Source: Octopus vulgaris (taxonomy: Eukaryota). Taken from it: a DNA stretch of 64,000 bases. Where the stretch lies: assembly GCA_951406725.2 (NCBI GenBank), contig OX597821.1, forward strand, positions 43,710,001-43,774,000, in the 5' to 3' direction. The notes under the pieces are model-generated. The model saw nothing but the letters and a program-made list of their open reading frames with translations. It was not told the DNA's origin and did no database searches. Position numbers and translations under genes: made by a program. This document shows positions 53,784 through 61,002 of this stretch, piece after piece. The first letter of the stretch is position 1; every line of letters starts with the position of its first letter.

Positions 53784-54385
53784 CCGGTGACACGTAAAAG
53801 CACCATCCGTTTCATGGCCGTTTGCCAGCTCTGTCTGGCCCCCGTGTTGGTGGCACGTAAAAGCACCATCCGTTCGTGTCCGTTGCCAGCCTCGCCTGGC
53901 CCCGTGCTGGTGACACGTAAAAGCACCATCCGTTCGTGGCCATTTGCCAGCTCTGTCTGGCAACTGTGCAGGTGGCACGTAAAAGCACCCACTACACTCA
54001 CGGAGTGGTTGGCGTTAGGAAGGGCATCCAGCCGTAGAAACACTGCCAGATCTGACTGGGCCTGATGAAGCCTTCCAGCTTCACAGACCCCAGTTGAACC
54101 GTCCAACCCATGCTAGCATGGAGAACGGACGCTAAATGATGATGATGATGATGATGATATATATATATATATATAATTGAAAAATTGGATAAAATCTTTA
54201 TAAGAATTTATCAAGTAGTTATAAGAGAAAAATCCATCAATTATTTCTCTTAAATATATTTATATTAAGAGCATTACTATACATAAATGTATAAGTGTGA
54301 ACAATTCTATGTACTATGCTGGATACATTTGGTATTCGTCTGGTATGTTGATCTTTTGTTCCTTTTTATGTGTCTTGATTATGCT

Positions 54386-54575: not shown

Positions 54576-54617
<42 letters not shown>

Positions 54618-54753
54618 CGGAGATGTACTTGCATAGCATGTGACCTGATCTGAGATAGTGTGCTGGAATGGAAGCAATTGCAGCATAGAAGGTGTTTATA
54701 AGCCATTTAAGAAACACACAAAAACTGTTAGATTCACTTCAATATTTAAATTT

Positions 54754-54809
54754 AATTTACCAAAATATTTTCATCGCTTTGAGACCGCGACCTGTTCACT
54801 AACAAAATT
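54754..54809 (-). ncRNA. HHR-like motif with G3-C8 core
   Basis: Minus strand: tttgtta-GTGAACA-g-gtcgc(ggtctcaaa)gcgat-GAAA-atat-TT-tggtaaa. Confidence 0.6.
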
Positions 54810-54866
54810 CCATGCTGCATTTGAGAAAGTAACAGTTCTCGATATATATATGTACATATGTATGTG

Positions 54867-54898
<32 letters not shown>

Positions 54899-55045
54899 TG
54901 TATGTATGTATGTATGTTTGTATGTATGTGTGTGTGTCTGTATATGCATGTGTGTATGCATATGTGTACATGTGTATGCATGTGTGCATGCCTATACGCA
55001 TGTATGTATGTATGTATGTATGTATGTATGCATGTATGTATGTAC

Positions 55046-55076
<31 letters not shown>

Positions 55077-56167
55077 TAGACGTGTATGTGTGTGTGTACA
55101 TGTGTATGTACATGTGAACATATGTTTATGTACTGATATGTGTCTGTTGAAGTTGTATACATGACTGTTACTTTGTTGAAGGTTGTATACACACACACAC
55201 ATATACATACATATGCATATACATATATATAGACACACACACACATATATATGTACGTGTGTATGTGTTTGTCTCTCTCATCACAGTCTAACGGTGAATG
55301 GATATGTCTTAGATACATATATGCACATATAATCTTACTTATACATATATACAAGTACACACAATCATATAGACACTTACACACACTCACAAATATACAT
55401 ATAATCTTAAAGTATACACACATGTACACTTATCCATCTACACATATATATATATATATGACACTATTTTCAAGGATAACGGTTAAAATTCAAATTTGCT
55501 TCTTTTATTATTATTATTTTTTAATCTTTTTTTACACACATATACAATACATATATCTACACACATACTCATACATGCATGTACATACTCATACATACTC
55601 ACACAACACATACATCTACACATATGTACATACGTATCAAACTATGTATGCTCATATCGTTATATATAACTACATATATGCGCTTTAGTATCATGCATTT
55701 TAACATGTATGTATGGATTTCCACATGTAAATGAGAAAAAGGACTGGCCATAGAGGGGTACTCCCAAGTGGAATCTGGGTGTTACCTCATTTGAATTTAT
55801 GGTTGAGAGTGGGTTTGCCTTCTTGTATACAGACAGCTTCAGTGACTTGTCTCAGCATTGCATCAGTGGGATGTGTAGATAAGATCATCATCATCATCAT
55901 CATCGTTTAACGTCCGTTTTCCATGCTAGCATGGGTTGGATGGTTCGACCGGTGTCTGGGAAGCCAGGAGGCTGTTCATACGTACACATGTGCGCTCGCG
56001 CACCCACGTGCGTACATATACAAGCATGCTTACATGTTTACTATCAACTTTTAACCTTATCTTAATTAGCAGTCATTCGAATTAGCGCTTTTGTATAAGT
56101 AGCTGACTATAACACAGTAATTTCCCTTTGTATAACAGTCTTTTTTCATAGCGTTTTTCAGATGGCC

Positions 56168-59933: not shown

Positions 59934-60245
59934 TGCTGTTGCTGTTGGTTGTTACAGTTGTTGATGCTATTGTTGTTGCTGCTGCTGCTGCTGTTGTTGC
60001 TGTTGCTGCTGATGTTGTTGTTGCTGCTGCTGCTGTTTCTGTTGTTGTTGTTGCTGCTGCTGTTGCTGCTGCTGTTGCTGCTGTTGCTGTTGCTGCTGTT
60101 GTTGCTGTTGCTGCTGCTGCTGTTGTTGCTGTTGCTGCTGCTGCTGCTGTTGTTGTTGCTGTTGCTGCTGATGTTTTGCTGTCATTGCTGCTGCTGCTGT
60201 TGTTGCTGTTACTGTTGTTGCTGTTGCTGCTGCTGCTGTTATTGT

Positions 60246-60277
<32 letters not shown>

Positions 60278-60437
60278 TTGTTGCTGCTGCTGCTGCTGTT
60301 GTTGTTGCTGCTGCAGCTGTTGTTGTTGCTGTTGCTGCTGCTCTTGATGCTGTCATTGCTGCTGCTGCTCTTGTTGCTGTTGCTGCTGATGTTGTTGTTG
60401 TTGCTGCTGCTGTTGCTGCTGTTGCTGTTGCTGCTCT

Positions 60438-60469
<32 letters not shown>

Positions 60470-60540
60470 CTGTTGCTGCTGCTCTTGTTGCTGTCATTGC
60501 TGCTGCTGCTGTTGTTGCTGCTGCTGCTTCTGCTGTAGTT
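59934..60540. repeat. ~600 bp mixed (GCT/GTT)n trinucleotide array
   Basis: Direct reading; yields poly-Q, poly-L and poly-SN ORFs. Confidence 0.95.
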
Positions 60541-61002
60541 ATTTTGTGTCACTTGACATCGTACTCTTATTTATAGGCAATCGATTGAAGTTGTTCTAGT
60601 TTCACGCTTCATTTCCACCTCCTCACCACCTCCCTACATCACCTCTCCACCACCCTGCATCCCATCCCTACACCTTTGAGTTACATCCCTCCCTTCCCCC
60701 CACCATATCGTACTAACTGACATCTATGACTTATACCAATGCTATAAAATTTTCCAAATCTGGAAACTGCAAAAGGGTGCCACAATCTTTTTAAGGCCCA
60801 ACAAAAATCACAACACCAACTGGACCTTATATTCTGCTATGTTCAGGTGTAGGTATGGCTGTGTGGTTAAGAGGGTTGTTTTCCAGCCACATGTTTTTAG
60901 GTTCAGGCCCTCTGCATGGCACCCTGGGGCAAGAGTCTTTTACTGAGCTGATCAAAACTTATGAGTGTTGGTAGACAGGAGCTGAAAGAGGCCCATTGCA
61001 TA

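Follow-up and report, generated by a model that had tools for sequence, protein, structure and literature searches.

A minimal type-I hammerhead motif with the core GTGAACA lies on the minus strand of the Octopus vulgaris window (the whole stretch of 64 kb analyzed here), and the pair G3-C8 that it carries in place of C3-G8 is firmly established as a family trait, fixed in two subfamilies of a Penelope-like retrotransposon. We consider it probable, though well short of certain, that this is a Penelope-family minimal hammerhead with G3-C8 throughout, whose intact copies likely fold and cut weakly, probably as a dimer or together with the element's protein, and that the copy in the window is decayed and likely dead. 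This reading was drawn from sequence comparison and predicted folds.

The core, stem II, GAAA, palindromic stem III and stem I that the first-pass annotation had recognized were all found, on the minus strand (Table 1). The annotation was nevertheless incomplete: it lacked the strand, the unpaired G at 54792, the Penelope element, the decay of the copy and the origin of the inserted copies from uncut RNA. U4, G5, A6, A9, G12, A13, A14, A15.1-U16.1 and H17 are kept in both subfamilies. The literal C3 and G8 of CUGANGA are replaced by G3 and C8, which makes the motif a variant of the type-I hammerhead, and the annotation was right that a CUGANGA search would miss the family. Positions 3 and 8 are still complementary in the Watson-Crick sense, as G-C here and as C-G in a sister family. 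The location in a pseudo-LTR, the unpaired extra base between 9 and 10.1, the G10.1-C11.1 pair of intact copies and the palindromic 15.x-16.x stem III are all shared with the metazoan Penelope hammerheads (PMC4209133), as is the occurrence mostly as solo truncated copies, often in inverted pairs. The AATATT palindrome is predicted to form stem III solely between two copies, following the dimer model of PMC4209133.

Table 1. Features of the hammerhead motif and its host element in the window
Feature	Positions	Strand	Remarks
Minimal type-I hammerhead motif, G3-C8 core, decayed copy	54756..54806	-	
Stem I, 5' strand TTTGTTA	54806-54800	-	one change relative to intact copies
Core positions 3-9, GTGAACA	54793..54799	-	G3 = 54799, C8 = 54794
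Unpaired G between positions 9 and 10.1	54792	-	trait described for Penelope minimal hammerheads (PMC4209133)
Stem II (5 bp) and 9-nt loop II	54773..54791	-	GTCGC 54791-54787 with GCGAT 54777-54773
GAAA and palindrome AATATT	54772-54769 and 54769-54764	-	G12-A13-A14, then 15.1 to 16.1
Predicted cut 3' of U17	between 54763 and 54762	-	U17 = 54763; placed by standard numbering
Stem I, 3' strand TGGTAAA	54762-54756	-	two changes relative to intact copies
ORF start (ATG 54706-54704) to fixed 3' end of inserted copies	54616..54706	-	
Conserved leader upstream of stem I	54820..54842	-	5' ends of copies pile up at the equivalent of ~54822
Microsatellite-rich 3' UTR of the element	54843..55749	-	
C-terminal remnant of GIY-YIG endonuclease	55750..55885	-	5' truncation point ~55885
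(TA)n tract adjoining the 3' end of the element	54579..54615	.	likely target site

The window copy is worn: stem I contains three G-U wobbles, and the pair 10.1-11.1 is a further one. Its hammerhead fold reaches -3.3 kcal/mol against -7.0 for an alternative fold, and this copy is probably inactive. In intact copies, the hammerhead fold has -12.4 and -13.3 kcal/mol, stems I and II are the minimum-energy structure, as expected of a three-way junction open at stem I, and the pair probabilities of stem I are 0.66-0.94. The energies of a swapped dimer (-27.2 kcal/mol) and of two monomers (-26.6 kcal/mol) differ too little to be informative. A descriptor of the motif gave one match in the window and none in 200 of 200 locally shuffled windows, a significance that is overstated because the descriptor was built post hoc.

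We give almost no credence to the idea that the core is a chance pattern or a double mutation private to the window copy. It would explain why this copy folds no better than shuffles (z-score 0.09) and why no hammerhead was among the 118 matches at E<=1 in an Rfam scan of the window with this copy in it, those matches being microsatellite-driven miRNA noise. However, thousands of copies share the core and the intact ones fold as described, which rules this idea out. The consensus check proposed in the first-pass annotation gave G3-C8 as the state of the family, in the older as well as the younger subfamily.

The host of the motif is a Neptune-like Penelope element, truncated at its 5' end (55885-54616, minus strand), and the motif belongs to its pseudo-LTR. 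A first look with the 227 bases around it gave 4,275 candidates in the animal's own 2.8-Gb genome. Family copies share a fixed 3' end, are truncated at the 5' end and frequently have inverted segments, and the longer ones continue into a GIY-YIG domain (PF01541, 23.0 bits against a cut-off of 22.6), a cysteine linker and reverse transcriptase (RT) motifs (RVT_1 was weak, E 0.014, below the cut-off). The linker, CxxxCxxC between RT and endonuclease (EN), was seen by eye. One younger-subfamily copy has an open frame of 1,025 aa with RT and GIY-YIG. In a direct tandem (L225), the order is motif, ATG about 90 nt downstream, ORF and second motif, and the fixed 3' end of inserted copies falls within the ORF start, as it does in the anole element (PMC11167929). 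The pseudo-LTR tandem, the 5' truncation, the inverted copies and this position of the 3' end are those of an EN+ Penelope-like element, and on its sequence features we class the element as such, with Neptune-type architecture. RT, cysteine-rich linker and C-terminal GIY-YIG, microsatellite targets, and 5' truncation with inverted copies are likewise found in the Neptune clade (PMC8557442). A non-LTR retrozyme, which would be a short non-coding tandem array, was rejected for the window, where there is one copy, joined to an endonuclease remnant. Coding does not explain the swap: the ORF begins about 90 nt downstream of the motif, and a short upstream frame differs by one base between the subfamilies, so constraint from an encoded protein was rejected.

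Several other features of the repeats were seen along the way. An identical inverted junction of two pseudo-LTR pieces is present at many loci (L038, L040, L052, L053, L055, L056, L058, L311 and L341-L344), and such a shared junction suggests that a non-autonomous derivative, shaped like a hairpin, has spread in one piece. At one place (G000:C28:5211103-5213513), at least seven younger-motif copies are spaced at about 170 bases in a retrozyme-like tandem array. Among the 40 best hits for the endonuclease tail, 13 are on one contig (C16). Another repeat, ending in (ATG)n, has two copies in the window (55886-56000 and 53990-54160), one of them directly next to the point where the Penelope copy is truncated at its 5' end. 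The window also holds a long (TGC)n tract (59965-60661), which would encode polyglutamine if read on the minus strand and is possibly an exon.

For the older subfamily, the frequency of G3-C8 was determined with a pattern that left positions 3 and 8 free. It gave 3,315 matches (none with the reversed control), and 93 of the first 100 listed were G3-C8. As 244 of the matches are not C8 and 125 are not G3, about 2,950 are G3-C8 (~89% of 3,315). The younger subfamily was found by protein search (~80% RT identity) and has identical stems and core with a different loop II; among its 2,666 matches within one mismatch, 57 are not C8 and 18 are not G3, and the G3-C8 motif was intact in all eight loci picked by RT similarity. 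The older-type core also occurs in contigs of four organisms (A-D; loose-end consensus rows). Searching with the canonical core between the same short flanks yielded 32 matches (2 with the control), and when all 32 were read, none was a family copy with C3-G8; 18 of them resemble the end region of the sister family.

The sister family, with 55% protein identity, was found by RT similarity without use of the motif, and it has C3-G8 at the homologous place. Its loci (L231-L238; for example ~5420-5470 in L236) are young and include a 1,312-aa frame with a long Asn-rich insert; the ORF start is homologous, and stems I and II show paired changes. Its hammerhead has C at position 9 (A9C), itself a departure from the core, so core purity may be relaxed in the clade. 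Other hammerhead families in the fetched loci are mostly C-G or U-A at positions 3 and 8, and several distinct minimal hammerheads with U3-A8 lie in the fetched flanks from the same genome (L139-L141, L196, L229, L234, L238, L251 and L300). G3-C8 is most likely the derived state, given that hammerheads generally have C3-G8 (PMC4209133). Covariation over 16 rows scored 0.202 against 0.149 when shuffled, a comparison limited by the relatedness of the rows and by 12 of the 13 C-G rows having been chosen for that core.

The first-pass annotation had taken a double change that keeps the pair as a sign of selection on RNA structure. Its first half stands, as both positions are changed relative to the homologous sister family and still pair. 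The swap happened once, in a single lineage, and so does not by itself demonstrate selection on the 3-8 pair. The only two changes in the core restore a Watson-Crick pair, which is a coincidence of about 1 in 3 once G3 is fixed. All 42 positions of stems and core are the same in the two subfamilies (L222 and L239 compared), while the sequence of loop II has been replaced and, in one other pair of copies, one of them decayed, differences were counted at 18 of 61 four-fold sites of the ORF. The loop II change could be one event. As the whole pseudo-LTR is ~90% identical between the subfamilies, the conservation of the stems stands out against loop II and the ORF and hardly against their own flanks.

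These comparisons bear on a rival explanation, in which the motif is a dead relic. The fold would be kept for another job (dimerization through the palindrome, protein binding, an internal promoter or a leader structure), and G3 and C8 would have been fixed successively by drift in one master lineage, with their pairing coincidental. The near-equal conservation of the flanks and the A9C of the sister family speak for it. The coincidence that it needs at positions 3 and 8, the retention of all other core letters in both subfamilies and the prevalence of C-G or U-A in the other hammerhead families speak against it, and we consider this explanation unlikely, though it deserves to be taken seriously.

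The annotation had named independent variation of positions 3 and 8 as an observation that would count against its claim. Among genomic copies the two do vary independently, yet this is expected of dead copies that decay after insertion, so the claim is not refuted. Double changes at both positions numbered six in the first 100 of the 125 non-G3 copies of the older subfamily, with ~9 expected in all by chance, and an excess of A3-U8 doubles (four in the same first 100) was not convincing. G3 had changed to C in 11 of these 100 and in 2 of 18 younger copies.

At position 8, both subfamilies most often show a change of C to G, giving G3-G8 (loci L150-L188 and L240-L268). It accounts for 48 of the first 100 of 244 older copies and 31 of 57 younger ones and is commoner than C to T. 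In the background, C>G mutation is 0.8-1.0% against 3.7-3.9% for C>T, so the change at C8 is several times background, and this surplus of G3-G8 copies counts against our preferred reading of the motif. A control C in the same ACA context had changed to G in 8 of 33 cases (p 0.008, or 0.05 after clusters were collapsed). The G8 copies are scattered over sub-lineages, and in inverted pairs G8 was in one arm in two cases and in both arms in two. In the older subfamily, 47 G8 copies have no linked diagnostic site compared with 50 others, so G3-G8 was rejected there as a single ancestral intermediate or subfamily. The 31 G8 motifs of the younger subfamily are biased towards an older sub-lineage, and five of them are clustered locally, but they are not one clade. 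A per-copy hotspot is the simplest reading of the G8 excess, and it may be a copying error or a process linked to the ribozyme.

The 5' ends of inserted copies were compared with the predicted cut. The pattern used to pick copies begins 15 nt downstream of the cut and has 5,790 matches; the first 100 were fetched, of which 95 were distinct. None of these first 95 distinct copies begins at the cut; 91 extend at least 9 nt upstream of it, and the other four comprise the two arms of one insertion, with starts 2-3 nt before the cut, and two copies that begin after it. The template of the insertions was thus RNA that was uncut (or re-ligated), which agrees with the dispensability of cleavage in vitro (PMC11167929) and counts against a strong role for cutting. 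Such an origin also suits the dead-relic explanation, as do the insertion of the anole element in vitro without cleavage in that study and the spread of Naiad elements without canonical hammerheads (PMC8557442).

The starts pile up just before stem I, where 42 of the 95 copies begin 53-63 nt upstream of the cut (loci L300-L388). Nine of the 15 copies starting exactly at one A carry an extra G (p ~0.0003 at 18% G), or 8 of 14 when one duplicate is removed (p 0.01 at 25%). Judging from these sequences, the extra G is probably a copied cap and the pile-up a capped transcription start. A cluster of starts at -43/-44 is partly an artefact of the use of two references, and eight starts at -34 are one propagated junction. 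The pile-up stretch also resembles a branch point, a pyrimidine tract and a 3' splice site; no shared upstream exon was seen at this splice-like site.

The same ends can be set against a model in which the ribozyme is fully active and central to the cycle. A dimer of pseudo-LTR copies would cut, the unit RNA would be re-ligated to a circle, and RT would cross the re-ligated site, so the copies would look uncut. Such circles were proposed in PMC4209133, direct tandems with two motifs exist (L225), and re-ligation would leave no scar. We nevertheless regard the model as very improbable, as the stops of 42 copies upstream of the cut, with the extra G at an exact base in nine of 15, fit a linear capped template and not a circle.

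For the weakly cutting hammerhead that we prefer, the following course can be proposed. The swap would have arisen from C3-G8, and it would have been tolerated since what counts at positions 3 and 8 is Watson-Crick geometry together with the 2'-OH of residue 8, and not a G base. U17 would avoid a G3-C17 mispair, as suggested by the C3-G17 trap described in PMC3884650. The transcript would start, capped, ~15 nt before stem I, and reverse transcription would begin inside the first 90 nt of the ORF. Cutting would remove the cap and leader, and it may be a slow side reaction (in turnover, translation control or unit-length processing) and not the step that makes the template for insertion. A more far-reaching version, which the sequences allow us to advance tentatively and at less than even confidence, is that G3-C8 makes a natural, working hammerhead, fixed in an animal retrotransposon that was active recently and has several thousand copies, and that it is placed just behind the cap as a deliberately slow decapping switch, with uncut RNA going to insertion and cut RNA to another fate.

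Minimal Penelope hammerheads with the extra base, the palindrome and low activity have been described (Cervera and de la Peña 2014, PMC4209133). The motif here differs from them in G3-C8, as the pairs given there are C3-G8 and, for Schistosoma, U3-A8; the core GUGAACA was not found in the supplementary text searched. Natural U3-A8 hammerheads are also known (Perreault 2011, PMC3088659) and are a natural covariation of the same pair. However, U3-A8 takes two transitions and keeps the pyrimidine-purine order, whereas G3-C8 takes two transversions and inverts it; the sections of PMC3088659 on these variants do not name G3-C8. Engineered C3G/G8C is reported to be partly active where the single changes are inactive (PMC11167929, PMC8495972, PMC3884650), and it partly restores the protein-requiring Penelope hammerhead of the anole Poseidon element (PMC11167929). 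The octopus family has the same base combination as that mutant and resembles the anole element in using uncut RNA as the insertion substrate and in a probable internal start of reverse transcription within the ORF. The anole combination is a laboratory mutant, whereas the octopus family, which has been expanding recently, has it fixed in nature, and the anole hammerhead overlaps the ORF (PMC11167929), whereas this one is upstream of it. A full-text literature search, with Lünse 2017 (by its title on variants of such motifs) outside its scope, found no natural G3-C8 hammerhead. Within the literature searched, natural G3-C8 is novel; minimal Penelope hammerheads, natural U3-A8 and engineered C3G/G8C were already known.

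The naturally fixed swap gives evolutionary support for the 3-8 pair. The C3-G8 pair was the key finding of the full-length hammerhead structure, and its exchange for G3-C8 is the classic laboratory control. As C3-G8, U3-A8 and G3-C8 motifs coexist in one genome, they form a ready test set. The family also bears on the purpose of Penelope hammerheads: a weakened core in a thriving family, and likewise uncut, probably capped templates, argue that such elements can spread without fast cutting. In this genome, at least about 5,500 motifs would escape descriptor searches, and if the reading as a slow decapping switch is true, an entire layer of animal ribozymes is missing from censuses based on CUGANGA.
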